Assembly (NCBI GenBank): GCA_020696385.1
Contig: JAEHCQ010000001.1
Span: forward strand, 416,001-480,000
DNA from: Methanobacteriota archaeon
GTDB taxonomy: Archaea; Thermoplasmatota; Thermoplasmata; SG8-5; JAGLSY01
Length of the DNA stretch: 64,000 nucleotides
Direction of reading: 5' to 3'
Every line of letters starts with the position of its first letter. Within the stretch, counting starts at the first letter, position 1. A program made the translations under genes and the position numbers. The notes under the pieces are model-generated. The model saw only the letters and a list, made by a program, of their open reading frames with translations, ran no database searches and was not told the DNA's origin. Shown here piece by piece: positions 8,732 through 50,650 of the stretch.

Positions 8732-8899
8732 CTTATCACTGAAGCGAAACTGCACCTGCCCGCATATAAACAAAGTCGATTCTTGTAGGCTATATGTAGG
8801 GTATTTTTTTCATCATAATATTGCGGATCATACATGACCTTCATGATTCAATTATATCAATTTTGACAATATAGCCAGTACTTAAAATTCGACATTAAC

Positions 8900-9029: not shown

Positions 9030-11492
9030 ATGAAATATGATAAAATGTTGATTAGCATCTTGCTAATCACCTCAATGATATTAGCTAGTATCGCGATAGT
9101 TTCTGATAATGTGAGTTCCATCGATGTTGGAGGTGATTCTGTTACAGAAATAGCCTCACTTCCCAATGGTGTGACCATAAATGACATCTCGTGGAAGGAT
9201 GATGGTTCCATTGCCCTTGCCGTGGGAGCCAATGAATCTGGCGGCTCCAATGCCTTCTGGTATTATCCAAATATCGACCAGTGGGTGGGACTTACCCCGT
9301 ACTGCGTCGAGGTCCCTATGGAATTGGTCCACACACAGGTAGCAACAGAATGGGAAGCAATGTCTCTGGCATTCTCCCCAGTTTACAATTACACTTTCTA
9401 TATTGATGATGGTGCCCTTAGCAAGTTAACAGAGGGCGTGCATTATAATTTCAATCCTGTAACTGGAGAGGTCGTGATGCTACCTCCAAATCTATCACCT
9501 GGTGATGAACTGCTTTGCTGGTACAATTACTCCATAAGAGAATTCTTCGGAGTGGAATATGATCCATTCACCGATAGTTTCGGCATAGTGGGAGGATATG
9601 TGGATGGCATTCAGTCAAGCGCAATGTATGTGACTCCAGGATCGACAGAGATGTTCGAGATATCGCATAACGGTTCGTGGCCGACCCAGGAACTCAGAGG
9701 AATGGATGTGGATGAGTACGGTAATTTCCTGGCAGTAGGGGCAAATGATCTGGTTCTTTTCTACAGATTGCTGGATGACACTTGGTATGCGGTTGCAGAT
9801 GATGAGCTAGATTCTGGATGGAATTATAATGATGTTAGCTATGAGCTGGAGAATCATAGATACTATCTGGTAGGTGGAAATGCCAGTGGAGGTGTGATAG
9901 CATACACAGATCCACTTGCAGACAATACTGTAATTCCAGCAAAGCATTACGATTATGACTCTTTCGCCAATATGACACAGAAAGCAATTATAAATTCCAT
10001 TGAATGGAACAATGACCCTAATAAATTCGGTGGAAATCAATATGCTTTGTTAGTTGGTAGCTCGGACCTGGTCATGATCCAACCAATTGATTCCGGATCA
10101 CCGATGATCGTTGGCCCACAGATACCGAATATGGTCTTTGAGGATGTTGGATTTGACGAATCCTCGTGGGAGTACGCGACGCTCGTCGGATGGGATCAAT
10201 CCACTTCCAAGGGCTATATCCTTTATTTCAAACCTGGAGAATCCAATATAAAGACCCTGCACTCTGATATCAGCCAGAAGTTCTATTGTGTAGATTATCG
10301 GCCGCCGAACAGCCCGTCCTTCGGCTTCGTTATAGGAGCTAGTGGCGGAGCTAAGATCAACACAAATGCATTTGACATTACCACGAAGCTCTATGTGAAC
10401 ACCGATGTGCCTCATGTATTCGATACAGACATGTGGGATGCCAGTGATGCTGGACAGGTATCAGTGCTCAATACACAGGTCGATGTCAAGAACACCTACA
10501 CTTTCTTTGTGGAAGTGAATTACACCGTTGGTGGAGATGATGAGTTCTGGGACAATAATGACAATGTCAGAGTGGTCCTCTGGGCATGGCATGATGAAGG
10601 GCAGACAGATACAGATTCAAATCCAGAAGGAACCTGGGCCACGGAAGATAACAGGACCAGGCAGTTCAGTGTAGCATGGGATGAGGGAACCACTCTTGTT
10701 CCTGGACAGGGAGCCGCCAGCATGGTATATCCTGTTGGAAGCGTGGGTGAGGACGAGTTCAGGCTGGATAGTTACTGGGTAGACCCAACTGGATATGGTC
10801 TGGATAGTAGCACCTGGCGAATGTACTTCAACATAACCTTCGATAATCAAACATGGGCCGCGGATGGAAATGGCTTTGGAAATGGAGCGGCGACCAATAT
10901 AAATGACCCTAGCCAGTCATTGAATGACCCCAATAGCTGGGATATGAGGTTCCAGATATATGATCAGGATTTCGTAACTGCATTGAACGAGAGCTATGAG
11001 GAGTTCGGGATATTCATGTTCACGAACATCAGCGTCAGTGGAAATCCGATGGGTAATGCACCTCCAGGAACCAATGATACCCTTCTGTCTCCAGTCTCCC
11101 AGATCACCTATGCTGCTAATATCGACTATTACCTGAATGTATCCATCACCAACCTGAGTAGAATAGGAGGAAGTGGAGTGATCGGAGCTAATAATATCAG
11201 GGTTGAGCTCAATGATCCTCAGGCCAACAATACCAATACACAGTTGAATGACACGTTCAGCTACTTCCCAGGAGAGGATCAGACACTGGGAGTTTGGGGA
11301 AATGTGTCGCAACCGGTCTCTGATTGGATGCTACCAGCTCCATTGAATGGAACATCATCTAATGGACCATTTGGCTCGGATTATAATGCTTATGGCGGCA
11401 CCACGAACTTAACCTGGTATGCGTCAGTTCCAGCTGCCATACCTGAAGGGATCTATGAGGCTGTTATAACGATCACGATAGGGTACTATTGA
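9030..11492 (+). CDS. array paralog 1: secreted propeller/Ig/pilin-like-tail protein with a small (~75 aa) inserted beta domain
   Basis: Signal peptide, NDISW..G..A.AVG blades, shared C-terminal module, ends GIYEAVITITIGYY; SD GGAGG. Confidence 0.85.
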   Translation: MKYDKMLISILLITSMILASIAIVSDNVSSIDVGGDSVTEIASLPNGVTINDISWKDDGSIALAVGANESGGSNAFWYYPNIDQWVGLTPYCVEVPMELVHTQVATEWEAMSLAFSPVYNYTFYIDDGALSKLTEGVHYNFNPVTGEVVMLPPNLSPGDELLCWYNYSIREFFGVEYDPFTDSFGIVGGYVDGIQSSAMYVTPGSTEMFEISHNGSWPTQELRGMDVDEYGNFLAVGANDLVLFYRLLDDTWYAVADDELDSGWNYNDVSYELENHRYYLVGGNASGGVIAYTDPLADNTVIPAKHYDYDSFANMTQKAIINSIEWNNDPNKFGGNQYALLVGSSDLVMIQPIDSGSPMIVGPQIPNMVFEDVGFDESSWEYATLVGWDQSTSKGYILYFKPGESNIKTLHSDISQKFYCVDYRPPNSPSFGFVIGASGGAKINTNAFDITTKLYVNTDVPHVFDTDMWDASDAGQVSVLNTQVDVKNTYTFFVEVNYTVGGDDEFWDNNDNVRVVLWAWHDEGQTDTDSNPEGTWATEDNRTRQFSVAWDEGTTLVPGQGAASMVYPVGSVGEDEFRLDSYWVDPTGYGLDSSTWRMYFNITFDNQTWAADGNGFGNGAATNINDPSQSLNDPNSWDMRFQIYDQDFVTALNESYEEFGIFMFTNISVSGNPMGNAPPGTNDTLLSPVSQITYAANIDYYLNVSITNLSRIGGSGVIGANNIRVELNDPQANNTNTQLNDTFSYFPGEDQTLGVWGNVSQPVSDWMLPAPLNGTSSNGPFGSDYNAYGGTTNLTWYASVPAAIPEGIYEAVITITIGYY

Positions 11493-11524
11493 TGGTTTGA
11501 TAATTAGAGCCGTTTCCATAAAGT

Positions 11525-11570
11525 CACAATCGGATAATGTATCCGATTGTGTCTATCCTACTTTTTCCCA
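11525..11570 (+). terminator. hairpin plus T-tract after paralog 1
   Basis: CACAATCGGATA-atg-TATCCGATTGTG (12-bp stem) followed by CTTTTTCCC. Confidence 0.55.
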
Positions 11571-11599
11571 TAATATATAATAGTTACCCAAATAGTATA

Positions 11600-11609
11600 T
11601 TTATATAAA
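11600..11609 (+). promoter_or_regulatory. TATA box candidate for paralogs 2-12 operon
   Basis: TTTATATAAA about 120 nt upstream of ATG 11723. Confidence 0.45.
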
Positions 11610-11722
11610 GTAACATACAAGCTTTATTCTCTAAGGGAGGGTTCCGAAAGGACCCTGCATGATGCGCATCCCTCAATGAAATGATGAGGGGGGCGAATTC
11701 AAAAATAGAGGGGACGAGGCCT

Positions 11723-14700
11723 ATGTTCAGAAAACGAGTTATAGCTTTGAGCATTGTGATATTGATGATAGCCAGTGTATTCTCTGGACTATCATTTTTA
11801 ATTGCAGCTGAAGATGTTGGAATGTATCCTATCGAGGATGTATTAAGTGCTCCAGCAGGTGTCCAATTGAATGATATCGCATGGCATCCTGATGAGAATA
11901 TTGCCGTTGCTGTTGGTAATGATTCGACCAATGGATATATCTACAGATATGAGCCAGACAATGATAACTGGGTCAATCTAAGAAATTATGTGGGAGATAA
12001 TTTCAAAGGTGTGACACAGTTGGAACCATGGACCTTCTTTGATGATGTTGAATCCGATGCTGGATGGACCGTCAACTCATGGATGGGTAACTTGAACTGG
12101 GAGAGAAGGAATCCAATAACCCTGCCAGTACCAGGTTCGGGTATCCCTCATGGAACAGCATATTCTGATAGTGCAGTATGGTGGTTCGGGAACATCACCA
12201 CTGGCGATTACAATGATAATAACCAGATAGTCAGAGGCAGCATGGTCTCTCCTGTAAAACATATACCAAATATCTCGACCAATGCAAACCTCTCATTCCA
12301 GCACTGGTTCGATGTGGAATCTGGTGGAAGTTATGACTATAGCCATGTCTATATCAAGAACACCACCGACCCAGGGTGGACAAATCTATACTCCTGGAAC
12401 TCTGGATGGGTAAGCTCCAATGGAGGTGCTGGCTCTCATACAAAGATAAGCTGGACGCAAGAGAGATATGATATATCTGACTGGATAGGAAATGATGTTC
12501 TTCTGAACTTCACATTTGATTCTGGCGGAGATGGCTCAGCGAATAATTATGCTGGCTGGCACATCGATGATATTCAATTAGAGAGCAATGGGGTCTTCAT
12601 GGCTGTGGGAAACCCTGGCGGAGGCTCTTTTTCTGCTTTCTATACAGATGGTTACAGTCCGATGACCAGTGTGGAAGACCTGAATGGCTTTGATCTGTAT
12701 GACGTGGCTGCTGGACCCGATGGTACCGCGGTCGCAGTCGGGGTTGGAGGAGCAGCCCTTTATTGGAATGGAGAGAGCTGGCAGGCCCTCAGCGGTGCAG
12801 CTGGCAGTGATATCTTGACCTCCATCGATTGCAATGGAACCCATTATTTCATTGTGGGCTATGATTCCAGTGATGATGGGATCGGTTTCTACATAACAGC
12901 TAATGAACTAGCTACAGGGAGCAGTGACATACATCCAATGCCTGGAGCCCCTACCTACAAGCTCAATAGCATCAGCTGGTCAAACAACTGTCCAGCTGGT
13001 GATTCTGATAATGGACTGGGAATAATCGCGGGAGAAGGGAACATCCTCGGCTTCACCAATCCCGAATTCTGGCGACAGAAAGACCCATCAACGATTCCCC
13101 CTGGCAGAAGGAATCAGGCCATGTCCTGGGATGAGGATTACAATCAAATGATAATGTTCGGGGGAAGTGATGGCTCTGACCTTGGTGATACCTGGGCATA
13201 TGATATTGGCGATGATGAATGGGTAGAAATTACCCCTGCAGGCAGCCCATCTGCAAGAAATTACCCCAGGATGGTATACAGTCCAACTGACAATGTCCAT
13301 ATAATGTTCGGAGGAAGCGATGGTGGTGGGTATGATGATGAGACATGGGTGTATAATTATGCCACAAACTCCTGGACGAACAAGAATCCCAACCCCAGAC
13401 CCCCTGCAAGATCCGAGCACACAATGGCCTATGACGAGGTCTATCAAAAGGTCATTCTCTTCGGTGGAAAGAATAACGATGGAAACCTGGCAGACACATG
13501 GGCTTACGATTACCGCACCAACACATGGACCAATATGACCCCCACAATAACCGGAACTCCAAGTGCGAGATTCCTGAGTGGGATGAGCTATGACTCAGTG
13601 AATGACAAAACCATAATGTTCAGTGGCTGGGGATCTTCTGGAGCCATCAGCGACACTTGGGCATATGATTATCCCAGCAATACATGGACCAATATGAATC
13701 CAGTACCATCCCCAACAGCGAGAGACAGGCATGCCATGACCTTCGATAAGGCTATTGGCCGAAGTGTTGTCTATGCTGGTTGGTCAGGAGCTTATGAAGA
13801 TGACACATGGACATACAATTACGGAACCAATTCCTGGGAAGAAATGGTCACACCTACTCGTCCATCTGATAGGTACGACATGCAAATGGCCTATGCCACT
13901 CAAGGAGTGATAGTGATGTTTGGAGGAATACCACCAGGCGACTCAGAAACATGGTTATGCAGGCTGAATGTCAACCCTTGGGGGGAACCTTCCAGTGTCA
14001 CAAATGGTGAGAGCTTCACTGCCACTGCATGGGATACCGCTGGAACAACAGCTATCGTCGTTGGTCACAATACCTCATCCGCAGTCCTTTATTCATATCA
14101 ATCTGGAGATGAGGATGTGACTCAATTACAGGATTTTAACAATGCGCTAGCTGGCCACGAGCTTTATGGTGTCAGCTGGAGACCTCTGGATCATGGTGCG
14201 CAATATGCCATGACTGTTGGAGCCAGTGCCTTCAAGCTATGGAGCAATGCATTCGATGATGGTACCACGATAACCGTGTCCACCGACAAGCCGCATATCT
14301 TCGATCATGGCCTGTGGAAAACAGCGGATGGACTTTATTCCACTTCAAAGCTGGATGCGCAATTGGACATCCAGACAACATACACCTTCTACACCGAAGT
14401 GAATTACACGATCGGAGGAGTGGATGACCTCACCGATGCTGATGGTAATTCCAGGATCGAGGTCATGGCCTGGTACGATGAAGGGAATACAGGAACCTCC
14501 AATCCAGATCCTTCATGGTCATCTGTAGACAATAGAACGCGACAGTTCAGGCTCATGTGGTTCGAGCAGAATGGAGGAACTCCAGCCACGGCCAGTATGA
14601 TTTACCCGAACCTCAGCCCGGGAACAGATGAGTTCCTGCTTGATGATTGGTGGATGGACCCAACTGGCTATGGTGTTGATGGCAATACAAGGAGGTTCTT

Positions 14701-15379
14701 CTTCAATGTCACTCTGGGAACACAAACATGGGCGGCTGACGGCCAGGGCTTTGGCAATGGTATTGGAACGCCACTATACGATAAATCATCCGCTCTCAAT
14801 GATCCAGATAGCTGGGATTTCAGAATAAGACTTTTCGACAATAATTTCGTCAATTCGGCCAATCTCTCATTCGGCGAGTTCGGGGTCTACAGGTACACGA
14901 ACATCACGGTAGCTGGCAACCCTGGCGGGAATGCACCGCCAGGTTCCATGAACTCCCCACTGGGGCCACAGAGCCAAGTCACATATTCTTCCAATATTCC
15001 ACATTATGTCAATGTCTCAGTTGGAGATCTTAATAGACAAGGCGGAGGTGGCAACATTGATGCCACGAACATCAATGTCAGCCTTCAGAACGACCTCGGA
15101 ATTGGATTGAACCCATACACCGAGATCAATGACGATACTTGGCCCGATGGCAGGGCCTTTACAGGTGCGGGATTAGCCAATGGGCTGTGCGTTTGGGGTA
15201 ATAGGACCCAGGTAACCACATACATGCCAGCACCGAAGAACGGAACTACCACCCATGGACCCTGGGGTTCAGATTACAATAACATGGGTGTGACGAACAT
15301 CAACTGGTGGGCCAATGTGCCCGGAGCGACGCCTGAAGGGATCTACCAGGCGGCGATAACATTCAGCATAGAATATTAG
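11723..15379 (+). CDS. array paralog 2: carries an InhA/MAM-like jelly-roll domain and a Kelch-type propeller
   Basis: Start re-set to MFRKRVIAL (signal peptide); FFDDVES...GWHIDDI domain; about six MFGG...DTWAYD...NTWT repeats; shared C-terminal module ending GIYQAAITFSIEY. Confidence 0.87.
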   Translation: MFRKRVIALSIVILMIASVFSGLSFLIAAEDVGMYPIEDVLSAPAGVQLNDIAWHPDENIAVAVGNDSTNGYIYRYEPDNDNWVNLRNYVGDNFKGVTQLEPWTFFDDVESDAGWTVNSWMGNLNWERRNPITLPVPGSGIPHGTAYSDSAVWWFGNITTGDYNDNNQIVRGSMVSPVKHIPNISTNANLSFQHWFDVESGGSYDYSHVYIKNTTDPGWTNLYSWNSGWVSSNGGAGSHTKISWTQERYDISDWIGNDVLLNFTFDSGGDGSANNYAGWHIDDIQLESNGVFMAVGNPGGGSFSAFYTDGYSPMTSVEDLNGFDLYDVAAGPDGTAVAVGVGGAALYWNGESWQALSGAAGSDILTSIDCNGTHYFIVGYDSSDDGIGFYITANELATGSSDIHPMPGAPTYKLNSISWSNNCPAGDSDNGLGIIAGEGNILGFTNPEFWRQKDPSTIPPGRRNQAMSWDEDYNQMIMFGGSDGSDLGDTWAYDIGDDEWVEITPAGSPSARNYPRMVYSPTDNVHIMFGGSDGGGYDDETWVYNYATNSWTNKNPNPRPPARSEHTMAYDEVYQKVILFGGKNNDGNLADTWAYDYRTNTWTNMTPTITGTPSARFLSGMSYDSVNDKTIMFSGWGSSGAISDTWAYDYPSNTWTNMNPVPSPTARDRHAMTFDKAIGRSVVYAGWSGAYEDDTWTYNYGTNSWEEMVTPTRPSDRYDMQMAYATQGVIVMFGGIPPGDSETWLCRLNVNPWGEPSSVTNGESFTATAWDTAGTTAIVVGHNTSSAVLYSYQSGDEDVTQLQDFNNALAGHELYGVSWRPLDHGAQYAMTVGASAFKLWSNAFDDGTTITVSTDKPHIFDHGLWKTADGLYSTSKLDAQLDIQTTYTFYTEVNYTIGGVDDLTDADGNSRIEVMAWYDEGNTGTSNPDPSWSSVDNRTRQFRLMWFEQNGGTPATASMIYPNLSPGTDEFLLDDWWMDPTGYGVDGNTRRFFFNVTLGTQTWAADGQGFGNGIGTPLYDKSSALNDPDSWDFRIRLFDNNFVNSANLSFGEFGVYRYTNITVAGNPGGNAPPGSMNSPLGPQSQVTYSSNIPHYVNVSVGDLNRQGGGGNIDATNINVSLQNDLGIGLNPYTEINDDTWPDGRAFTGAGLANGLCVWGNRTQVTTYMPAPKNGTTTHGPWGSDYNNMGVTNINWWANVPGATPEGIYQAAITFSIEY

Positions 15380-15458
15380 GAGGTCGTAACATGAAAACGA
15401 ATACAGAAAATTTGAGCAAGAACATGACGGCCTTCGAACAGAGAAGGGGTGATTCTCA

Positions 15459-18400
15459 ATGAATCAAAAAATAACCTCAATAGCAATAGTGTGTGCGATG
15501 CTGTTGATGGGAATATCCATCAACATAGACAGTGGCGCCCAAGGGGCCTTCGTGAACTATCAGTCAGTACCATGGACAAGTGACTTCACACCATTGGATT
15601 CCGCATGGGATCCTGCAGGGGACAATTGTGTAGTTGTTGGAAATGACACCTCTGGTCTGCAATCCAGTGCCTGGCATTTTTATGAGCCGACAAACACCTG
15701 GTCACCTATATTTGAAGGAACTGATGCATCTTCACCAGCAGCCAACGTGGTTGTCAATGACAATACAAGCATGACGTATGGTTCTATACAGAGTGCGATA
15801 GATGCTGCAAGCTCTGGCAATGTCCTGGAAGTATGGTCCGGAACCTATTATGAGAATATTGCCATAAACAAGATGCTGACCATAATCGGTAACGGCAGTG
15901 CGAACACCATCATAGATGGGGGTAATGCCGACAATGTCGTGCACATTGGCGCATCCAATGTGGAGTTCAGTGGTTTCAGCGTGACTGGCAGTACACTATT
16001 CTCTGGATATGCAGGGATATTGCTATTCAACTCCGATAACTGCAATATACATGACAATTACATCTACGACAATTATGATGGAATTCGACTTGAGGGGTCA
16101 TCCAACAACATCATCACGGAGAATGATGTTGAGAACAATGAGGTTGGAATAATCACTGCAAGCAGCCCGGAGACAAAGAGTTTGATGGGAGTTTCTGAAG
16201 ATGGCGGGTCGGTAGGCTATGGAGCCATGTATGAACTAGACACGGATGGCTCTAATTTCGATGTGATCCGCGAATTCCTCCCAGAACATCAGGACGGTAG
16301 GAACCCATATTACAATGCGGCATTGACACTGGATATGTTCGATCTCAACACACTGTACGGTACCACAAGATACGGTGGCTCACATAATGCTGGTATTATC
16401 TTCAGAACAGATGTAAATGGAGCATCTTACGATATTCTATTTAATTTCACAGCAAGTGTCAATGATGGCAGATACCCCACAGGGGATTTACTGCAAATCG
16501 GTGATGAACTTTATGGAATGTGTAATTCAGGTGGAAGTTCTAACTATGGGACGATCTTTAAAATAAGAACAGATGGTAGTGATTTTGAGGTCCTTCATAG
16601 CTTTACCGGGGGCGCCGGAGGGAGTTCCCCACAATATGGAGGCTTAGTCTATGATGGCTCGTCAATATATGGAATGACATACAATGGTGGAACCATCTAC
16701 GGTACAATATTCCAGATATATCCAGATGGTTCAGGCTTCACGATCCTGCACAACTTTGATTCTGCCAATGGTGAATATCCATATGGAAGTCTCACTGTCA
16801 GTGGAGGAATGCTCTATGGCATGACCCGTATGGGAGGTCTTTGGGATGATGGAGTGATATTCAAGATAGACACCTCAGGCGGTGGTTACACGGTGCTTCG
16901 TGAATTTGGCCCCACCTTCTACAATCCTTACGGGAATCTCTTGATCATAGGGTCAAATCTTTATGGAATGGTCTACAATGGGCCTGCCAACTATGGGGGC
17001 GTGTTCACCATCGATATATGGGGTGGCGGATTCAATGTACTGCACAGCTTTGCAGGCGGTGTTGGTGATGGTGGCTACCCATACGGAAGCCTGGTACATG
17101 ATGGGAGCGGCATGCTCTATGGGACGACCAGGAGCTATGGAGCCAATAGTGTTGGGACCATTTTCAAGGTCAGCACCGATGGCTTGACATATAATCTGAT
17201 CACATCTTTTACAGGCACAGCGGGCGTAGCCCCGGGGTCATACTCAGGATGCAATCTGATATACGATGGAGGATGGCTCTATGGAACGACCCAGAGTGGA
17301 GGAACCACAAATGACGGGACCATTTTCAAGGTCAGGTGGGATGGTTCTTTATTTACCTCACTACATAACTTTGATGATGCGACGAATGGAGGTACCTACC
17401 CCAAATCAAACCTACTCCAGAGTGGAGATTACATCTACGGGGTCACTAACAACGGTGGCATTTATGGCTCGGGAACTTTATACAAAATGAATATTGACAA
17501 GACCGGCTACACCATAATGCATCATTTCAATTCTGTTGATGGTAGTAATGGAGATAATCCGTATTCTGAACCGATCCAGGTAGGTGGTACATTATACGGA
17601 ACCACCTATGATGGCGGAGTCTTTGGCCAGGGAACTATCTACAAGATAGAGACTGACGGTACTGGCTTTTCGCTATTGCATAGCTTCCAGGGTGGTTTAA
17701 CAGATGGGGCTAGCCCTTACTCTGGACTTACTTATGACGGGTCATTCCTATATGGAGCAACTCGAAATGGTGGACCCTCGAACTATGGTTCGGTCTATAG
17801 GATCAACACTGGTGGTTTCGGCTACACAACAATGCACCTTTTCGGTGGAGTGCCAGACGGAGAATATCCAGGTTATGGAAAATTACTGGATGATGGGGTA
17901 TTCCTATATGGGACAACAACCAATGGAGGAATGTTCGATAGAGGCACTGTGTTTAAAATAGCTAAGGCCACTTCCATAGTAACGATACTTCATAATTTCA
18001 CAAGTGTTGTCTCGGATGCACAGTATCCATATGGCGGCCTTGTGTCCGATGGCACATATCTCTATGGAATGACCAGCTCTGGAGGGGTGTATGGCGATGG
18101 AACAGTATACAGAGTGCGCACAGACGGGTCTAACTTCGGCCTAATGCACCACTTCGATTATAATGCGGATGGTGGCTACCCTGAAGCGTCATTGACACTC
18201 GATGGGAACACATTGTATGGTGTTACATCGGAAGGTGGTGATGGAGTCACAGATTATGGTACGGTATTCAAGATCGACAAGGATACTGCGGTATTCACTT
18301 TGCTTCGCTATTTCCAAGGGAATCCAGGTATTGCCTATCCATATGGCTGTGGCATTGCCATGATAACCTACCCTGCTGCAGATTCGTGGACCAATCTCAT

Positions 18401-24709: not shown

Positions 24710-24712
24710 TGA

Positions 24713-30064: not shown

Positions 30065-30084
30065 AAATAGATGGAGGAATATAA

Positions 30085-32295: not shown

Positions 32296-32301
32296 GGGGA
32301 T

Positions 32302-35007: not shown

Positions 35008-35008
35008 A

Positions 35009-39634: not shown

Positions 39635-39644
39635 AACGGAGGAG

Positions 39645-42350: not shown

Positions 42351-42368
42351 GGTTGAGGAGGTGAAAAA

Positions 42369-45059
42369 ATGATACAAACACGAAAAATACTGGCAATGGC
42401 GATAATGACCCTGATGGTGTGTGGCAGTGTGCTGATCGTCACACCTTATACTCCTGCGGCTGCAGAGGATTCGGCAAAGGCCTTTGAAATTCTGGATGGT
42501 GGATTCCCATTGGCATATCAAACCACCCTGGATCAGAGCTGCGAAGATGCGGTTGATCATTATACTGTGAGTTCCGGGGTTCCCTGGGCTCAGACCTTTG
42601 TGCCTACAATAACGGGTGAGCTCTCCTTTGTTGATCTTCAATTATATGCTGATTCTTCGATCACGCTCTCAGTTCGCTGTGAGATAAGAACCACCCACTG
42701 GGAAATTGACGAATGGGTTCCGGATGATGTGGGTGGTAGGATGACCTACGAGGGAGATTCTCAAACCCTGACAACGTCTCCCGCCTGGTATCAGATATCT
42801 ATGTCGACAAAACCAGTATTAACAGCTGGACAGACCTACGCAATAGTTCTTGTATGGTTGAGCGCGGATTTCCATTGGAGTTGCCTAGGAAACTATGGAG
42901 ATGGGGATGGATTCAATACAGGTGATGGGGGAACCACATGGAGCAGTCTTAGTGGCGAGAACTTTGGTTTCCGCACATACATGGAGGAACCAGATAATTG
43001 GCTTTCAAAGGTCGCCTGGCATGGAAACAACAACTATGCATATGGAGTTGATGGAACTTCCAGCAATCTGTACAAATTCACAAGGGATACCGGCTCATGG
43101 AGTAATGTTGGGGCATTGGAGTTAGGAGCGACATTCCATGACATAGTCTATGATCCTAGCACATCCCTATTTTACATAGTTGGCCAGGACAATAGCGGCT
43201 ATGCGGCCGGTTGGATGTACAACCACGACACCGGAACACCAACATATCTGATAGACACATTTGTGACCGGGGCATTCTATGGAGTGGAACGTGCGGCTCC
43301 CTATGAATATCCATATTTATTCCTGGCAGTGGGTGAGGACACGACAAATGGCAAAGCCTACATGTGTTGGTACGATGATAATTCACCGTGGTGGGCGGCC
43401 GAGGACACAACCCCTGCAGAGGATGCCACTGGTGATGTGATCTATGACGTTGCTTGGAATGGTATTGATGCATCCGGAAGCGCTTATATCTGCGTTGGCA
43501 TGGACGCTTCAGGTGATGGAGTGGTTTACCATATTGGAGGTCCACTCGAAAGTGGTATTGACCTGGGAATCATACATGGATGGAGCCCATTAGGCTCTTT
43601 GAAAGCAGTTGACGGGCATCCATCAGATCCCACACTTGGGATCATTGTCGGTGAAAATACTGCTGGAACTGGAAATGCATATTTATTGGACACCAGTGGG
43701 GCACAGCCAACAATGATCTCTGACACATCGTACATATTCAATGATGTGGACTGGCGCCCAGACGGAGAGATGGCTGTAGCTGTGGGAGCGAAGTTGAATG
43801 GCAAAGGTGTCATGTGCCAGTATAACGAAGGTACTGATTATGTAGTTGATCTATCTGCCGATCTACCTACAGATGCTGAAGGCCTATTTGGCGTCGCTAT
43901 GAAGGGATTCTCCAGCCCCAGTTCTGGGCTTATAGTAGGCAGTAGTGGAGCAGTTGGATTTTACCCATCGGCGGTTGATTCTGGCACCACTATCACAGTG
44001 AGCTCCGAAGAGCCGCATATGTTCAATATGGATATGTGGAAGACATCAGATGCTGGACGCGTATCCAAATTGAATACCCAGGTGGATGTTGAGACCACTT
44101 ACACCTTCATGGCCGAGGTCAACTACACAAAGGGCGGCATCGACCAGTTCTACACAGATGGTGACGATGATGTATATGTGATCCTGACTGCTTGGTTCGA
44201 TTACGGAGTAGCGCCCTCTAGTTTACCAGGTCAGGATGACTATAATCGAACAAGGATGTTCCAGGCAATTTGGGTAGAGGGAGGGGCTGCACCTGGAAAT
44301 GCAGGCATGATGTATCCTGTTGGAAGTCTAGGAACCAATGAGGTACTTCTTGACAGCTATGGATTCGAGATAGGGGCGAGTGACCATTATTACGTCTACT
44401 TCAACCTAACCTTCGGACCCCAAATGTGGGCGGCTGATGGCAATGGATTTACAAATGGTGCAACCTCCGATATCTACGATTATACCACAAGCTATGATGA
44501 TCCAAACAGCTGGGATTTTGTAATGACCGTGGAGGATGCGAACTTCAACAGTGCATCGAATTCCAGTTTTGAGGAGTTCGGAATATTCCAGTTCACGAAC
44601 ATAACGGTCTCAGGAAACCCTGGCGGGAATGCACCACCAGGGTCAAGCACACAGCTTGGGCCGAACAGCCAGATGCAAGTTTCTTCCAATATCGATTACT
44701 ACGTCAATGTCTCAATTCCAGACCTTGCCAGGATCGGTGGAGGAACACCCATCAATGCGACATACGTGTCAGTGAACATAACCAGTCCATTTGCTAACAA
44801 TACGAATTCGATGATAAACGGAACCGCAGTGAGCTTCCCGGGAGGAAACATGACCCTCGGGGTGTGGGGCAATACGAGCCAGGCATTTGGAGACTGGGTT
44901 GTTGCGGCTCCGCTGAACAGTACGACGGCTCACGGGCCGCAAGGAGCGGACTTCCAGAGTATTGGAACGACCGACATTGAATGGTGGATAGATGTGCCAG
45001 GCGGGACAGACGAAGGCATATACCAGGCCACGGTGACATTCAAAATAGGATACAATTGA
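42369..45059 (+). CDS. array paralog 10 (subfamily D)
   Basis: SD GGAGGTGA; EDS..F..LDGGFP-[AQTFVP...FGFRTY]-KVAWH; ends GIYQATVTFKIGYN. Confidence 0.85.
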   Translation: MIQTRKILAMAIMTLMVCGSVLIVTPYTPAAAEDSAKAFEILDGGFPLAYQTTLDQSCEDAVDHYTVSSGVPWAQTFVPTITGELSFVDLQLYADSSITLSVRCEIRTTHWEIDEWVPDDVGGRMTYEGDSQTLTTSPAWYQISMSTKPVLTAGQTYAIVLVWLSADFHWSCLGNYGDGDGFNTGDGGTTWSSLSGENFGFRTYMEEPDNWLSKVAWHGNNNYAYGVDGTSSNLYKFTRDTGSWSNVGALELGATFHDIVYDPSTSLFYIVGQDNSGYAAGWMYNHDTGTPTYLIDTFVTGAFYGVERAAPYEYPYLFLAVGEDTTNGKAYMCWYDDNSPWWAAEDTTPAEDATGDVIYDVAWNGIDASGSAYICVGMDASGDGVVYHIGGPLESGIDLGIIHGWSPLGSLKAVDGHPSDPTLGIIVGENTAGTGNAYLLDTSGAQPTMISDTSYIFNDVDWRPDGEMAVAVGAKLNGKGVMCQYNEGTDYVVDLSADLPTDAEGLFGVAMKGFSSPSSGLIVGSSGAVGFYPSAVDSGTTITVSSEEPHMFNMDMWKTSDAGRVSKLNTQVDVETTYTFMAEVNYTKGGIDQFYTDGDDDVYVILTAWFDYGVAPSSLPGQDDYNRTRMFQAIWVEGGAAPGNAGMMYPVGSLGTNEVLLDSYGFEIGASDHYYVYFNLTFGPQMWAADGNGFTNGATSDIYDYTTSYDDPNSWDFVMTVEDANFNSASNSSFEEFGIFQFTNITVSGNPGGNAPPGSSTQLGPNSQMQVSSNIDYYVNVSIPDLARIGGGTPINATYVSVNITSPFANNTNSMINGTAVSFPGGNMTLGVWGNTSQAFGDWVVAAPLNSTTAHGPQGADFQSIGTTDIEWWIDVPGGTDEGIYQATVTFKIGYN

Positions 45060-45127
45060 ATGATATGATATCAAATTCCAAAATAATCATGAAAAAGGAG
45101 AAAATAAAAAAAGGAGAGATGAGAAAT

Positions 45128-47827
45128 ATGACAGAGATGAAGAAGATAATGGCCATGACGGTCGTGATAGCCATGGCATGCGCAAGTTTAGTGGTAGTTA
45201 TGCCGAACAACACGGTAATAGCGGAGGATTCTGCGAAGCCACTTACCGGTTTGGATAATGAATACCCTGCATTTGAAGATGTATTGGATGTGAGTCAGGA
45301 TCTAACGGATATGACATACCCTATCCTTTTTGGCAGTGACCAATATGGATCACAGAGTTTCCAACCCCTATCTGATGGAGATCTGTCCATGTTCGAATTC
45401 AGATTATCCTATCTGACATATCCAGATGGTGGAATGCTTGGTTATGACATTCGAGTGGGAGATCCACCAAACCCAGCAAGCACATTGATCGGTGGTTTTC
45501 AGTGGGTCGCTCTGTCAGATCTGGACGTCGGATGGAATGCGATAACCCTTTCCAGCACCGTCCCTGTATCCATTGGGACAACCTACCAGATCGTCCTAAC
45601 AGTATCCGACAGCAGCAGAGTTGATTGGGACTATAAATCCGGAGATCCCTATGCATCTGGAACTGGAAGGACCTCAGCAAGTGATACAGGATATTCGACT
45701 TTGGGGGGTGACTGGACCTTCAGAACTTACCTGGCAGTACCAACAGATGGCCTTGCAAAGGTCGCCTGGCATGAGAGTGGTGACTATGCTTTAGGGGTAA
45801 CTGGTTATGACGATCATATCTACAAGTACACAAGGCAGACATCGACATGGTCCAGTGAGAAGAATTTGGCCGGAGGCAATGTTTTCAATGATATCAAATA
45901 CAGTTCCAACTTCAACTTGTTCTACATAGTTGGCACTGGCTCAGTTCCATTGGGTTTCAGTTACTATGAACCAGCACAGTCTCTTGCAAACCTAAATGCC
46001 CCATTTGATGGCGGTGCTTATTTCAATGGACTATGCCTGGCTGACGAGAACGGTGCCGAAGATTTTGCTTTCCTCGCAGTTGGTTATAATTCAAACACCA
46101 ATGACCCCTATGCTGCATGGTATAATCAATCTTCACATATCTGGACAGTAGTAAATAGTGGCTGGAGCGGAGCGGATGAGAACCTGTATGATGTAACATG
46201 GGATCATGGCGCCACAGGAAACCCATACTATGCTGTTGGAAAGGATTACGGTACCGGAATGGGAGTGGTATACTATTTCACCACTACAGGGAACAATACA
46301 GCCAATTCCCTTGAGCTCAATGGGTGGATGCCCGGTCCATTATTTGGCATTGACTGGCAGCCAGCAGGAACTGCAGATCATGCAGTCATAGTTGGAGCAT
46401 TATACAGTTATGGGAATGTGTGGGTTTTCAATGGCTCATTTGGAGAGACCATATTGAACAATTCATACATACTCAATGATGTATGCTTCCATCCAGATGG
46501 CTCAATGGCCATGATAGTTGGTGAGACCAATAGCTTTGATGAAGGGGTGATCTATCATTATTATCCAGATAGCTCAGCAACGAAGATGAGCACTGATGGA
46601 ACACTTGACAGTCTAAACGGAGTTTCTGTAAAAGGCTGGACAAGCCCTAGCTCGGGTCTGATAGTAGGATCCAGCGGAGCAGTTGGTTCATACCTCAGTT
46701 CGAGCGATGGTGAAACCACAATAACCGTCAATGCCGCCTTCCCGCACATGTACACGATAGACATGTGGAAGACCAGTGATGCTGGCGAGACATCCACACT
46801 TAATGCAAGGGTGGATGCAGAGGAAACTTACACCTTCTACACAGAGATAAACTACACCATCGGAGGCACGGATGAGCTCTTTGACGTTGGTAATGTCAAT
46901 AATACCTTCGTGGACCTGACAGCATGGTTCGATGATGGAGATGATTCGACAAGTCTGATACCACCAGCAAGTGATGATGACCGCAGAACGAGGAAATTCG
47001 TGGCCAGATTCTATGAGGGGACTGCAGGAACTGGTGGCGTATCAGGTTCTATCATCTATCCAGACACCACAACCAATGAAATATTGTTGGATGGTGTAGG
47101 ATGTAGTGGACCATTTGGGGGCGATGACAGGTACGGTGTTTGGATCAATGTCACCTTCGGAGCGCAGATGAGAGCTGCTGATGGACAGAACTTCGCATTT
47201 GGCGCCGCAGGAGATATATTCGACAGCAACCAGGCATTTGACGATGATGACAGCTGGAACTTCCAGATGGAGGTCTACGATAATGACTTCCCAGGAGCGA
47301 CGAATTCCACATACGAAGAATTCGGGATATTCATGGCCACGAACATCACAGTGTCCAATAACCCAAGTGTCAATGCTCCGCCAGGAAGTGTCAGCATGCC
47401 ATTTGACTCGAACAGCTTGATAACTTACTCGGCCAATATACCATACTACGTGAATGTGTCAATTGAAAGGTTGAACTTGACAACTGATGATTCAAAATTC
47501 ATACCGGCCAGTAATGTCAATGTAAGCCTGGTGGATGCTTATCCTGCGGGATTCGATCTGGAACCATACACTGAGATTAATTCAACATGGGGAGCTGCTG
47601 GAAGACCATTCGCAGCTGCCAATACAGAGTACATGGTGTGGGGAAATACAAGCCAGGCAACTGAACTGGTACCAGCACCGAACAATGGAACAGCAGCACA
47701 TGGTCCGATATATTCGAACTTTGACGGGTATGGAGCCACGGAAGTTTCGTGGTGGGTGTCAGTACCTGGAGGAACGGATGAAGGTATCTATCAAGCGACG
47801 ATAACCTTCAAGATCGGGTACTATTAG
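45128..47827 (+). CDS. array paralog 11 (subfamily D)
   Basis: Start re-set from 44981 (overlaps paralog 10) to MTEMKKIMAM at 45128 by alignment with the paralog 10/12 signal peptides; ends GIYQATITFKIGYY. Confidence 0.85.
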   Translation: MTEMKKIMAMTVVIAMACASLVVVMPNNTVIAEDSAKPLTGLDNEYPAFEDVLDVSQDLTDMTYPILFGSDQYGSQSFQPLSDGDLSMFEFRLSYLTYPDGGMLGYDIRVGDPPNPASTLIGGFQWVALSDLDVGWNAITLSSTVPVSIGTTYQIVLTVSDSSRVDWDYKSGDPYASGTGRTSASDTGYSTLGGDWTFRTYLAVPTDGLAKVAWHESGDYALGVTGYDDHIYKYTRQTSTWSSEKNLAGGNVFNDIKYSSNFNLFYIVGTGSVPLGFSYYEPAQSLANLNAPFDGGAYFNGLCLADENGAEDFAFLAVGYNSNTNDPYAAWYNQSSHIWTVVNSGWSGADENLYDVTWDHGATGNPYYAVGKDYGTGMGVVYYFTTTGNNTANSLELNGWMPGPLFGIDWQPAGTADHAVIVGALYSYGNVWVFNGSFGETILNNSYILNDVCFHPDGSMAMIVGETNSFDEGVIYHYYPDSSATKMSTDGTLDSLNGVSVKGWTSPSSGLIVGSSGAVGSYLSSSDGETTITVNAAFPHMYTIDMWKTSDAGETSTLNARVDAEETYTFYTEINYTIGGTDELFDVGNVNNTFVDLTAWFDDGDDSTSLIPPASDDDRRTRKFVARFYEGTAGTGGVSGSIIYPDTTTNEILLDGVGCSGPFGGDDRYGVWINVTFGAQMRAADGQNFAFGAAGDIFDSNQAFDDDDSWNFQMEVYDNDFPGATNSTYEEFGIFMATNITVSNNPSVNAPPGSVSMPFDSNSLITYSANIPYYVNVSIERLNLTTDDSKFIPASNVNVSLVDAYPAGFDLEPYTEINSTWGAAGRPFAAANTEYMVWGNTSQATELVPAPNNGTAAHGPIYSNFDGYGATEVSWWVSVPGGTDEGIYQATITFKIGYY

Positions 47828-50576
47828 GAGATATACAAATCCAAAAAATCATGAAAAATGAAAAAAAAGAAAAAAGGAGATGAGAAAAATGATAGACATA
47901 AGAAAAATATTGGCCATGGCGGTCGTGATCGCCATGGCATGCGCAAGTTTAGTAATCGTGTCGCCGAACAATACGGTGACAGCGGAGGATTCGGCCAGAC
48001 CTCTATCGGGTCTGGATTCTGGATTCCCTGCATTTGAGAATGTGATTGACCAGAGCCAGATGGGGACTGACCTTACATGGCCCATTATGGATGGGGGTGA
48101 CCTATATGGAGCCCAGGGTTTCCAAGTAGGTATGGATGGGGACCTTTCCATGTTCGAGTTCGAACTAATGACCATCAGTGATATGGGAGGCGGGCAACTT
48201 GGCTATGATATCAGAGAAGGTAGCGATCCAGGTCTTGCAATGTCTATCATTGGAGGGTTCCAGTGGGTGAATCTGGCAGACCTGGAAGTTGGGTGGAATT
48301 CCATTTCCCTTGACACGTTCGTGGAAGTAATTATGTTTACAGATTACCAGATCGTATTGACGGTCACTGGAGGCAGTACCTTTGATTGGAATTATGATAG
48401 CAATGATTTCTATCCATCAGGCACTGGAAAATTGTCAGCGAATGATTTTGCCTATGGAGATCTTGGTGGAGACTGGACCTTCAACACATACATGGCAGTT
48501 CCAACAGATGGCCTGAAAAAGGTCACTTGGCATGAATCAGGTGATTATGCTCTAGGCATAGCGACCGGAACAGACCACATTTACAAGTACACAAGGAACA
48601 CCATGACCTGGGCCAGTGAATATGATCTAGGAACAGGCGACATATTCAATGACATCGAATACAGTGAATTTTTTGATTTATTCTACATAGTGGGAGAAGA
48701 TGTCGGAAGTATCACTGGTGCAGCCTGGAGCTACTATGAACCAACACAGAACTTACTGAACCTGGGTGCACCTAATGTCCCTGCAACGGACTTCAACTGT
48801 CTTGGCCTCGCGGATGAGGATGGTACAACAGATTATGCTTTCCTTGCCATGGGTGAGGACTATGCCCAATGGTATGATGAGGTCAATGATATTTGGATCG
48901 AGGTAACAGGTGGATTGAGTGCAATGGTGGACGTCATGGACGTGACCTGGGACCATGGCTTTGGCATATATTCATATTGGGCTGTTGGAGATATGTTGGG
49001 CGAAGGATACATTTATAAATTTATGAATGCGGGTGACGCTACCGCACAACAGTCGAATCCCGCAACATGGGGTACTGTGGGGCCATTCCATGGAATTGAA
49101 TGGCAGCCAGCAGGAGCCTCTGATCATGCCATAATAGTGGGTGAAAATACAGGAGATGGGAATGTCTGGAGTTGGGATGGTACGACTGCAGAGGCTCTTC
49201 TAGACACTACTGACACCTATACTGGCGTGAGCTGGCACCCTGACGGAAGTATGGCCATGCTCGTTGGTTATAATGGTGTTGATGAAGGTGTCATCTATCA
49301 CTATATTCCTGATAACAACAATGCATTTATCAAAATGAGCACAGATGGTGATCATGGAAAGCTATATGGCGTTGATGTAAAAGCCTGGACTAGTCCAAGC
49401 TCGGGTCTTATAGTTGGTAGCAGTGGAGCAGTTGGTTCATATCTTTCAGCATCAGATGGTGATACGACATTGACAGTCAATGCCGCTTTCCCGCACATGT
49501 ACACGATAGACATGTGGAAGACCAGTGATGCTGGCGAGACATCCACACTTAATGCAAGGGTGGATGCAGGGGAAACTTACACATTCTACACCGAGATAAA
49601 CTACACCATCGGAGGCACGGACGAGCTCTTTGACGCTGGTAATGTCAATAATACCTTCGTGGACCTGACCGCGTGGTTCGATGATGGAAATGATGCGACG
49701 AGCATGACGCCATCTGCAAGCGATGATTCACACAGAACGAGAAAGTTCGTGGCCAGATTCTATGAGGGAACTGCAGGAACTGGTGGCGTATCAGGTTCTA
49801 TCATCTATCCAGACACCACAACCAATGAAATATTGTTGGATGGTGTAGGATGTAGTGGACCATTCGGTGGAGATGACAGGTACGGAGTATGGATCAATGT
49901 CACCTTCGGAGCGCAGATGAGAGCTGCTGATGGCCAGAATTTCGTAAATGGAGCCGCTGGAAGCATATTCGACAGCAACCAGGCATTTGACGATGATGAC
50001 AGCTGGAACTTCCAGATGCAGGTATATGATAATGACTTCCCGGGAGCGACGAATTCCACATATGAGGAATTCGGGATATTCATGTCAACGAACATAACAG
50101 TGTCCAATAACCCAAGTGTGAACGCGCCGCCAGGAAGTGTCAGCATGCCGTTTGACTCGAACAGCTTGATAACTTACTCGGCCAATATTCCATACTACGT
50201 GAATGTGTCAATTGAAAGGTTGAACTTGACAACGGATGATTCAAAGTTCATACCAGCAGCCAGTGTAAATGCAAGTCTTGTTGACATGTACCCAGCTGGT
50301 TTTGATCTCGAACCATACACTGAGATTAATTCAACTTGGGGAGCTGCTGGAAGACCGTTTGCAGCTGCCAATGCAGAGCGCATGGTATGGGGAAATACAA
50401 GCCAAGCAACCGAACTGGTGCCAGCTCCGAACAATGGTACAGCAGCGCATGGTCCGATATACTCGAACTTTGACGGATATGGAGCCACGGAAGTTTCGTG
50501 GTGGGTGTCAGTACCTGGAGGAACAGATGAAGGAATTTACCAGGCATCGATAACCTTCAAGATCGGGTACTATTAG
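46725..50576 (+). repeat. near-identical ~1.1 kb direct repeat (46725-47827 vs 49474-50576, offset 2749)
   Basis: For example, a 95-bp exact match between 47021-47115 and 49770-49864. Confidence 0.9.
47889..50576 (+). CDS. array paralog 12 (subfamily D), recent duplicate of paralog 11
   Basis: Start MIDIRKILAM after SD-like GGAGATGA (alternative start 47880); C-terminal ~365 aa nearly identical to paralog 11. Confidence 0.86.
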   Translation: MIDIRKILAMAVVIAMACASLVIVSPNNTVTAEDSARPLSGLDSGFPAFENVIDQSQMGTDLTWPIMDGGDLYGAQGFQVGMDGDLSMFEFELMTISDMGGGQLGYDIREGSDPGLAMSIIGGFQWVNLADLEVGWNSISLDTFVEVIMFTDYQIVLTVTGGSTFDWNYDSNDFYPSGTGKLSANDFAYGDLGGDWTFNTYMAVPTDGLKKVTWHESGDYALGIATGTDHIYKYTRNTMTWASEYDLGTGDIFNDIEYSEFFDLFYIVGEDVGSITGAAWSYYEPTQNLLNLGAPNVPATDFNCLGLADEDGTTDYAFLAMGEDYAQWYDEVNDIWIEVTGGLSAMVDVMDVTWDHGFGIYSYWAVGDMLGEGYIYKFMNAGDATAQQSNPATWGTVGPFHGIEWQPAGASDHAIIVGENTGDGNVWSWDGTTAEALLDTTDTYTGVSWHPDGSMAMLVGYNGVDEGVIYHYIPDNNNAFIKMSTDGDHGKLYGVDVKAWTSPSSGLIVGSSGAVGSYLSASDGDTTLTVNAAFPHMYTIDMWKTSDAGETSTLNARVDAGETYTFYTEINYTIGGTDELFDAGNVNNTFVDLTAWFDDGNDATSMTPSASDDSHRTRKFVARFYEGTAGTGGVSGSIIYPDTTTNEILLDGVGCSGPFGGDDRYGVWINVTFGAQMRAADGQNFVNGAAGSIFDSNQAFDDDDSWNFQMQVYDNDFPGATNSTYEEFGIFMSTNITVSNNPSVNAPPGSVSMPFDSNSLITYSANIPYYVNVSIERLNLTTDDSKFIPAASVNASLVDMYPAGFDLEPYTEINSTWGAAGRPFAAANAERMVWGNTSQATELVPAPNNGTAAHGPIYSNFDGYGATEVSWWVSVPGGTDEGIYQASITFKIGYY

Positions 50577-50599: not shown

Positions 50600-50650
50600 G
50601 GGGCGGTAGAGGATTCTCTCCTTTTCACTATCGCCCTCCCTTTTCCTTTT
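50600..50650 (+). terminator. hairpin plus pyrimidine tract ending the array
   Basis: GGGGCGGTAG...CTATCGCCCT stem (with G-U pairs) followed by CCCTTTTCCTTTT. Confidence 0.55.

Follow-up and report, generated by a model that had tools for sequence, protein, structure and literature searches.

In the integrin alpha ectodomain, a 7-bladed beta-propeller that tolerates a large inserted binding domain is followed by beta-sandwich legs (thigh and calf), the I domain being inserted between blades 2 and 3. Tandem beta-sandwiches bearing a binding head occur in bacterial stalk and adhesin proteins such as AgI/II, FimH, the MSCRAMMs FnBPA and SdrD, SpaD and PrgB, and the hybrid two-component sensors of Bacteroides (BT4663, PDB 4a2l) join a propeller to an Ig-like Y_Y_Y sandwich. 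Dockerin-cohesin, SLH, WxL and the type IX secretion C-terminal domain follow a logic in which one C-terminal domain is carried by varied secreted proteins that have no membrane anchor. We describe here an array of 12 genes in a 64,000-nt stretch of DNA (hereafter the window; positions 416,001–480,000 of contig JAEHCQ010000001.1, assembly GCA_020696385.1) from an archaeon of the order SG8-5, one of the uncultured sediment Thermoplasmata, of whose cell surface almost nothing is known. The array (9030–50576, plus strand) comprises 12 co-oriented open reading frames (ORFs) of 736–1783 codons and takes up 41.5 kb of the 2.28-Mb genome (~1.8 %). Each of its proteins is predicted to contain a ~700-residue scaffold, consisting of a 7-bladed beta-propeller and then a rigid pair of beta-sandwich domains, with additional domains (hereafter cargo or heads) that differ from gene to gene. 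The locus could quite plausibly encode a repertoire of adhesin- or lectin-like cell-surface binding proteins, a reading that we favor, tentatively.

The last ~400 residues of all 12 proteins align, with 43 invariant columns, and delimit a shared C-terminal module of ~390 residues; across the array, its identity to the module of paralog 6, which is the minimal form, ranges from 32 to 54 %. A profile of the module matched the 12 array genes with E-values of 1e-137 to 1e-182, far beyond chance, and the acidic-domain motifs that had been quoted in an earlier interpretation of the bare nucleotide letters (hereafter the sequence-only reading) are all present in the alignment of the 12 modules. That reading had also recognized no named family for the constant base, in agreement with our searches: there was no Pfam family over the module in any of the 12 proteins, no NCBIfam family in the six proteins scanned, and no match of the module profile to PDB sequences even at E <= 10. 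Paralog 6 contains no Pfam family at all, and none was found with its propeller alone at E <= 1.

The propeller-like blades noticed in the sequence-only reading appear as a 7-bladed propeller (residues ~36–366) in an AlphaFold2 model of full-length paralog 6 (28 homologues, mean pLDDT 83.8), where they are followed by an all-beta region. When modeled alone (34 homologues, pLDDT 89.7, pTM 0.85), the module consisted of two beta-sandwich domains of ~215 and ~135 residues, designated A and B. Modeling was limited to paralog 6, and the propellers of the other eleven proteins are assigned by homology to it. In a Foldseek search of the PDB with whole paralog 6, integrin alpha ectodomains were the top matches (5es4_G, E 2.5e-13), with a query-normalized TM-score of 0.34, and the Bacteroides sensor BT4663 was the 13th (E 3.8e-10); for the propeller part, Ycf48 and WD40 propellers fit better (TM-score normalized to the target, ~0.7). 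The likeness to integrins is nevertheless a resemblance of design and not membership, with the array proteins showing no FG-GAP or integrin match in Pfam, having neither a transmembrane (TM) segment nor a beta subunit, and carrying their insertions between blades 1 and 2. They differ likewise from the BT4663-type sensors in having no Reg_prop or Y_Y_Y match in Pfam and no TM or signaling part.

Searches with the module alone returned only weak fold matches (best E 4.9e-5, query-normalized TM-score <= 0.29, 6–13 % identity), among them the sandwiches of AgI/II, FimH, FimG, CsuA/B, the integrin legs, FnBPA/SdrD, SpaD and PrgB, and a library of viral structures gave weak, generic tandem-Ig matches (best E 6.3e-5, query-normalized TM-score 0.20). 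Unlike the bacterial stalks, the array has neither a sortase motif nor chaperone-usher genes, and the weak fold match is not accompanied by any PDB profile match. The module also departs from the retention and sorting tags mentioned above in being archaeal, in comprising ~360 residues in two domains, when dockerin, SLH, WxL and type IX tags are much smaller, and in having no Pfam match to any of them. In a protein atlas it lay nearest to unnamed archaeal clusters, the nearest named cluster being WxL with a score of 0.77, which is below that tool's meaningful level and counts as a lead only; none of the 12 proteins matched WxL (PF13731) in Pfam, and domain A alone gave no usable named match in the atlas. 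Since there is no sequence match and the fold matches are weak, the module is new as a sequence family, although its fold is of a common kind. Residues D446, E494 and E576 of domain A are invariant in 29 sequences that diverge to 21 % identity. Prediction of a two-copy complex of the module, run with no controls, gave a score of 0.00 and is neutral on self-association.

Mapping the proteins onto paralog 6 revealed two arrangements, with the cargo situated either between blades 1 and 2 or ahead of the propeller. In five proteins (paralogs 2, 3, 4, 5 and 8), the first ~85–90 residues, comprising the signal peptide and blade 1, precede the cargo, which enters at ~residues 86–100 of paralog 6, and the propeller resumes at ~residue 77–110 of the same reference; in another five (paralogs 7 and 9–12), an unnamed head of ~160–175 residues stands at the N-terminal end, between the signal peptide and blade 1. 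At the blade 1/2 site, paralog 1 contains an insert of ~100 residues without a Pfam match. The cargo thus varies from gene to gene, as the sequence-only reading maintained; what goes beyond its account is that placement is fixed, at one propeller site or at the N-terminus. The families represented are LamG, Kelch, MAM, a beta-helix with GloVer repeats, DNRLRE and a small, unnamed, sandwich-like head and, to judge from these assignments, they appear to be of ligand-binding type, with no catalytic family among the Pfam and NCBIfam matches of the 12 proteins. A scan of single heads against Pfam, which covered those of paralogs 7, 9, 10 and 12, gave sub-threshold matches to DUF3218 or DUF4082 in two of the four (paralogs 7 and 9). 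Heads of these types occupy the same site in a further family of the order as well, with 40–48 % identity over 650–985 residues, which indicates that the heads are old and have been maintained. The array offers a clear example of domains grafted into a loop of a propeller, in proteins built on a module that has no sequence match in Pfam, NCBIfam or the PDB.

A second genome of the genus contains the array between the same flanking genes and in the same order, on a contig of 956 kb, with 13 genes, one of them extra. Between the two congeners, the products of the flanking ABCE1 and LonB genes are 96 and 95 % identical, respectively, and the array orthologues 56–87 % identical in global alignments (53–87 % by BLAST). 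The dN/dS ratios of positional orthologues, which are rough because dS is near saturation in places, were 0.05–0.17 for the module and 0.10–0.23 for whole genes, indicating purifying selection. Divergence was mosaic: the heads of paralogs 3, 8, 9 and 12 fall to 33–49 % identity between the congeners, with modules at 83–92 %, and those of paralogs 2, 4, 7 and 10 are at least as conserved as the module. Within the array, modules share 30–62 % identity, with the exception of those of paralogs 11 and 12, which are 94 % identical. This pair shows a sharp boundary at ~residue 500, upstream of which heads and propellers are 38–72 % identical, a pattern compatible with gene conversion, or else with a recent duplication after which the heads diverged.

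The module profile identified 15 places in the whole genome, corresponding to the 12 array genes, a 13th full gene and two fragments. The 12-gene array of the sequence-only reading is thus sound as an array, but as a count it is incomplete for the genome. The 13th full paralog is a lone, minimal copy on the minus strand, ~60 kb from the array (C11:356263-357438), and the fragments, which represent the final part of one module and the initial part of a second, occupy a contig of 1326 bp (G000:C7:1-1326) that is probably a piece of a further array left unplaced by the assembler. Among 41 genomes (this one and 40 relatives), the module was found in 26, with 13–20 copies per genome in the genus and 16–20 matches in each of three congeners, and no match was found in an even sample of 120 further genomes from the whole phylum (E <= 1e-5). 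Comparison with 1.84 billion representative proteins retrieved 271 clusters at E <= 0.001, and relatives of the module are annotated at source only as "hypothetical protein". A search of full-text literature, whose scope was the articles without their supplements, found nothing on this module family. By these searches, the family is small and restricted to this order and a small number of related families. The module ends no more than 8 residues from the C-terminus in 125 of the 150 best relatives, the minimal length of ~730 residues is seen in 23 of the 29 sequences chosen for the alignment of relatives, and stand-alone forms, consisting of a signal peptide and the module, also exist (P0089, P0100, P0087, P0098 and P0020).

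All 12 array proteins have a single hydrophobic window, which is N-terminal. No lipobox ([LVI][ASTVI][GAS]C) was present within the first 50 residues of any of them, and their C-terminal regions contain neither a PGF/PEF motif nor a hydrophobic window; window and motif scans thus agree with the sequence-only reading, according to which the proteins bear a signal peptide and no C-terminal TM, PGF/PEF-CTERM or lipobox. The genome has two exosortase-like genes despite the absence of PGF/PEF motifs from the array. Read by eye, the signal segments end in Ala-X-Ala-like triplets (AQG, ADA, VSA, AAA, VIA and VTA) and look like the ordinary Sec/signal-peptidase type, not the pilin type. The proteins are very acidic (pI 4.05–4.24) and contain 11–29 N-X-S/T sequons each. 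Seven sequon positions are kept in at least eight of the 12 modules, three of them in all 12, and sequon density is about twice that of shuffled sequences. The genome also contains an STT3/AglB homologue (G000:C46:122414-123595), and the array proteins are probably N-glycosylated. The STT3/AglB match is situated in an unusually long open frame of 2427 codons.

On the reading that we favor, the different heads would bind different ligands, and the propeller and the sandwich pair would form a stalk that keeps them at the envelope with neither a covalent link nor a membrane anchor. For the shared surface structure onto which, according to the sequence-only reading, the constant base docks, the strongest candidate, as a lead only, is MP494, an unnamed type I membrane protein of ~490–540 residues with a signal peptide, a ~430-residue ectodomain, one TM helix and a tail rich in Lys, Arg and Glu. 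MP494 had no Pfam, NCBIfam or meaningful PDB match, its sole PDB match being that of the Lys/Glu-rich tail to a designed helical protein. Genes for MP494 are interleaved with module genes in two more distant families, where all three copies in one genome (G032) and the single copy in another (G022) adjoin them, and in the three metagenome loci fetched with an MP494 query, module genes directly adjoin on the same strand in every case. MP494 is present in 22 of the 41 related genomes, all of them among the 26 with the module, and the pattern is identical at the level of families; the four module-positive genomes without it are 59–83 % complete. If the module is a docking device, it would provide a handle on surface retention in archaea without known anchors, as well as a natural display scaffold. 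A more elaborate version makes MP494 the common socket of a display system, into which a dozen or more secreted proteins would plug by means of the two-sandwich module, each presenting a binding domain of its own in a loop of the propeller; uniformity of the plug would be maintained by gene conversion as the heads drift apart, and an integrin-like design combined with a cohesin-dockerin-like logic would have evolved independently in the wall-less Thermoplasmata. We consider this version, taken as a whole, rather unlikely.

In the genome studied here, the MP494 gene (G000:C47:134620-136104) forms part of a cluster (L049, G000:C47:129689-136104) with an unnamed gene for a 232-residue protein and two ChlI/ChlD-like AAA+ genes, one of which encodes 1024 residues with zinc ribbons. 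A cluster of this type accompanies MP494 in G022, and VWA/AAA-lid genes adjoin module genes in G032.

Several observations weigh against a surface-held repertoire, or against MP494 as its docking site. Because no known type of anchor is present, the proteins may simply be released, and the weak fold matches of the module, with query-normalized TM-scores of at most 0.29, carry no functional information. The module is not always a terminal base, since it is N-terminal or internal in some relatives: in four of the 150 best (P0001, P0029, P0085 and P0118) it lies upstream of a different C-terminal domain of ~130 residues, and in P0083 it is N-terminal, preceding a beta-helix, a PQQ propeller and a PKD domain. 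MP494 shows no linkage to the arrays within the order to which the window belongs, lying here on contig C47, and the three metagenome loci are not independent evidence, because they resemble those of G022 and G032 and the search patterns were drawn from these. Additionally, the co-occurrence comes from genomes that are related to one another, and a single-gene tree of ABCE1 had weak deep branches and left only one independent contrast between module and MP494 on supported branches, which gives the comparison no statistical power.

Release from the cell is the core of another explanation, in which the proteins would be soluble binding or polymer-processing proteins and the module a structural or ligand-binding domain, not an attachment device. 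The uniform absence of an anchor from the 12 proteins agrees with it, as do the stand-alone proteins of signal peptide and module in relatives, the position of the module at the N-terminal end of some large proteins, the invariant acidic residues of domain A, which would fit a metal or ligand site, and the presence among the heads of beta-helix, DNRLRE and LamG domains, frequent components of extracellular proteins that act on carbohydrates. We nevertheless see it as somewhat improbable, given that no catalytic family was detected in the 12 proteins, that MP494 genes adjoin module genes in other lineages, and that the secreted peptidases of the genome carry a different C-terminal domain, which suggests that such domains serve in sorting or retention and not in catalysis. 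If the proteins were merely released, they would constitute a new but ordinary family of extracellular binding proteins. It could also be that an S-layer-like lattice or coat is built from the scaffold itself, with paralogs decorating the lattice with varied inserts. This is compatible with the frequency of the minimal form in relatives, with the lone minimal copy apart from the array, and with the acidic, sequon-rich and anchorless character of the proteins, which is shared by many archaeal surface-layer proteins. A beta-propeller is, besides, counted among the folds of S-layer proteins in a preprint (10.1101/2024.05.28.596244). Pfam (12 proteins) and NCBIfam (six scanned) revealed no S-layer family, however, and the module is also part of quite different proteins. 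The 13–20 copies per genome in the genus would moreover be unusual for a lattice protein, and we regard such a lattice as distinctly unlikely.

The sequence-only reading had gone on to propose an appendage system, which is unsupported because no pilus or assembly genes accompany the array: its flanks are of housekeeping type, no pilus, sortase or secretion-device genes lie beside the arrays in the window or in eight other genomes, no non-family neighbor is shared between the window and the arrays of those eight, and the signal peptides look Sec-like. The presence of FimH, FimG, CsuA/B and SpaD among the weak fold matches, together with the stand-alone module proteins of relatives, could still suggest a pilin-like unit that polymerizes by donor-strand exchange, with stand-alone forms in the shaft and cargo-bearing paralogs as tip adhesins. 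The low TM-scores to these pilus adhesins, also <= 0.29 when normalized to the query, argue against such a fiber, and the first strand of the module belongs to domain A and is preceded by the propeller, so that it is not a free extension; no chaperone, usher, sortase, pilin peptidase or ATPase gene was found beside the arrays examined, and we deem the fiber very improbable. Least credible of all is the view that the array arose from misassembly or consists of unexpressed gene copies in decay, a kind of possibility that the sequence-only reading had itself raised. Repeats did trouble the assembly, as evidenced by the 1326-bp contig with further fragments, but the same flanks and gene order on the 956-kb contig of the second congener (13 genes), the 12 open frames and the low dN/dS values, in the module as well as in whole genes, show that the array is not an artefact and that its genes are real; we give this possibility practically no weight. 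The surface-held repertoire is retained as the reading that we favor, and the features of the array are collected in Table 1.

Table 1. Features of the array and its flanking hairpins in the window (nucleotide positions are those of the window; residues are those of paralog 6).
Feature	Residues	Position (nt)	Strand	Description
Paralog 1		9030..11492	+	820 aa; signal peptide; propeller interrupted after blade 1 by ~100-aa unnamed insert; module (C-terminal) 10275-11489
Hairpin after paralog 1		11522..11554	+	12-bp stem, then T-rich tract; terminator-like; -23.2 kcal/mol, z -4.8, 0/200 shuffles as stable
Paralog 2		11681..15379	+	1232 aa; alternative start 11723; cargo InhA-like MAM and Kelch propeller; module 14156-15376
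Paralog 3		15459..20531	+	1690 aa; insertion after blade 1 of NosD-like beta-helix and 14 GloVer repeats; module 19359-20528
Paralog 4		20528..24709	+	1393 aa; unnamed ~270-aa region and two DNRLRE inserted after blade 1; module 23549-24706
Paralog 5		24713..30064	+	1783 aa; insertion after blade 1 of LamG_3 repeats and DUF2341; module 28865-30061
Paralog 6		30085..32295	+	736 aa; minimal form; AlphaFold2 models
Paralog 6, signal peptide	1-~29			
Paralog 6, 7-bladed propeller	~36-366	30190-31182	+	AlphaFold2
Paralog 6, sandwich domain A	~383-590	31231-31854	+	AlphaFold2
Paralog 6, sandwich domain B	~602-736	31888-32292	+	AlphaFold2
Paralog 7		32302..35007	+	901 aa; ~160-aa unnamed head ahead of propeller; module 33805-35004; sub-threshold DUF3218 match only
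Paralog 8		35009..39634	+	1541 aa; three LamG_3 inserted after blade 1; module 38438-39631
Paralog 9		39645..42350	+	901 aa; ~175-aa unnamed head ahead of propeller; module 41151-42347; sub-threshold DUF4082 match only
Paralog 10		42369..45059	+	896 aa; ~175-aa unnamed head ahead of propeller; module 43878-45056
Paralog 11		44981..47827	+	ORF of 948 aa, likely start 45119 giving 902 aa; unnamed head ahead of propeller; module 46613-47824
Paralog 12		47880..50576	+	898 aa; unnamed head ahead of propeller; module 49356-50573
Hairpin after paralog 12		50600..50637	+	Imperfect, then T/C-rich tract; -18.9 kcal/mol, z -1.9, 9/200 shuffles as stable

From paralog 2 to paralog 12, the genes are separated, in order, by 79, -4, 3, 20, 6, 1, 10, 18, 59 and 52 nt, in line with the -4 to 80 nt estimated previously; the 59-nt gap, between paralogs 10 and 11, presumes that paralog 11 starts at the Met codon at 45119, as deduced from its alignment with paralog 12. 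The gap between paralogs 1 and 2 is longer (188 nt) and contains a strong hairpin and a T-rich tract, 3′ of which there is a TATA-like TTTATATAAA (reading by eye). A terminator-like hairpin after paralog 12, as had been proposed, does exist; it is modest, weaker than the one after paralog 1, and was not listed in a scan for sigma-70-type (bacterial) promoters and terminators, which found no terminator after paralog 12 and is ill-suited to archaea. Three minus-strand ORFs of 166–200 codons, at 18813–19313, 39344–39946 and 42126–42641, lie inside paralogs 3, 8–9 and 9–10, respectively, and are probably chance frames.

One flank of the array contains genes for a DNA ligase, LemA, a TPM-domain protein, ABCE1, rubrerythrin and, on the minus strand, a secreted PLD/LTD/PKD protein, and the other contains those for LonB, a nucleotidyltransferase, CinA, a DHH phosphoesterase and ribosomal protein S15, among others; LonB and further genes of archaeal type indicate an archaeal source. 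The secreted protein (5948–8773, minus strand) is divergent upstream of paralog 1; it has 941 residues, with two lamin-tail, two PLD-like and PKD domains and a C-terminal TM helix, and its gene also neighbors the array in a congeneric genome, with 82 % identity. Elsewhere, TPR proteins, a metallo-beta-lactamase-fold protein, DUF92 and a phosphoglycerate mutase flank the arrays of one family, and this sharing of flanks within the family seems to reflect no more than common descent. In a family of the order other than the window's own (L027:7699-11973 and L029:7557-10631 in G012, with counterparts in G007 and G010), arrays lie between genes for a TPR protein of ~1420 residues and a zinc-ribbon/TPR protein of ~1020 residues.

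The genome also encodes a second and larger family of paralogs, characterized by a distinct C-terminal domain of ~130 residues (CTD2) with the motifs HWK, GWNLVGYP and GEAYWV...W.V.W. Profile-profile comparison gave no indication of kinship between CTD2 and the module (probability 0.1 %), and searches of NCBIfam and the PDB gave no match to CTD2, which in the full-length members scanned was not covered by any Pfam family either. It was found at G000:C11:279602-297758 and at 13 further places (loci L046-L048), in 17 ORFs that include S8 subtilases and an M14 carboxypeptidase; one match (G000:C11:108868-109242) falls within an unusually long open frame of 8676 codons. CTD2 was found in 33 of the 41 related genomes, reaching 55 matches in a single genome, and it has the look of the principal C-terminal domain by which secreted proteins of the class are sorted or retained.

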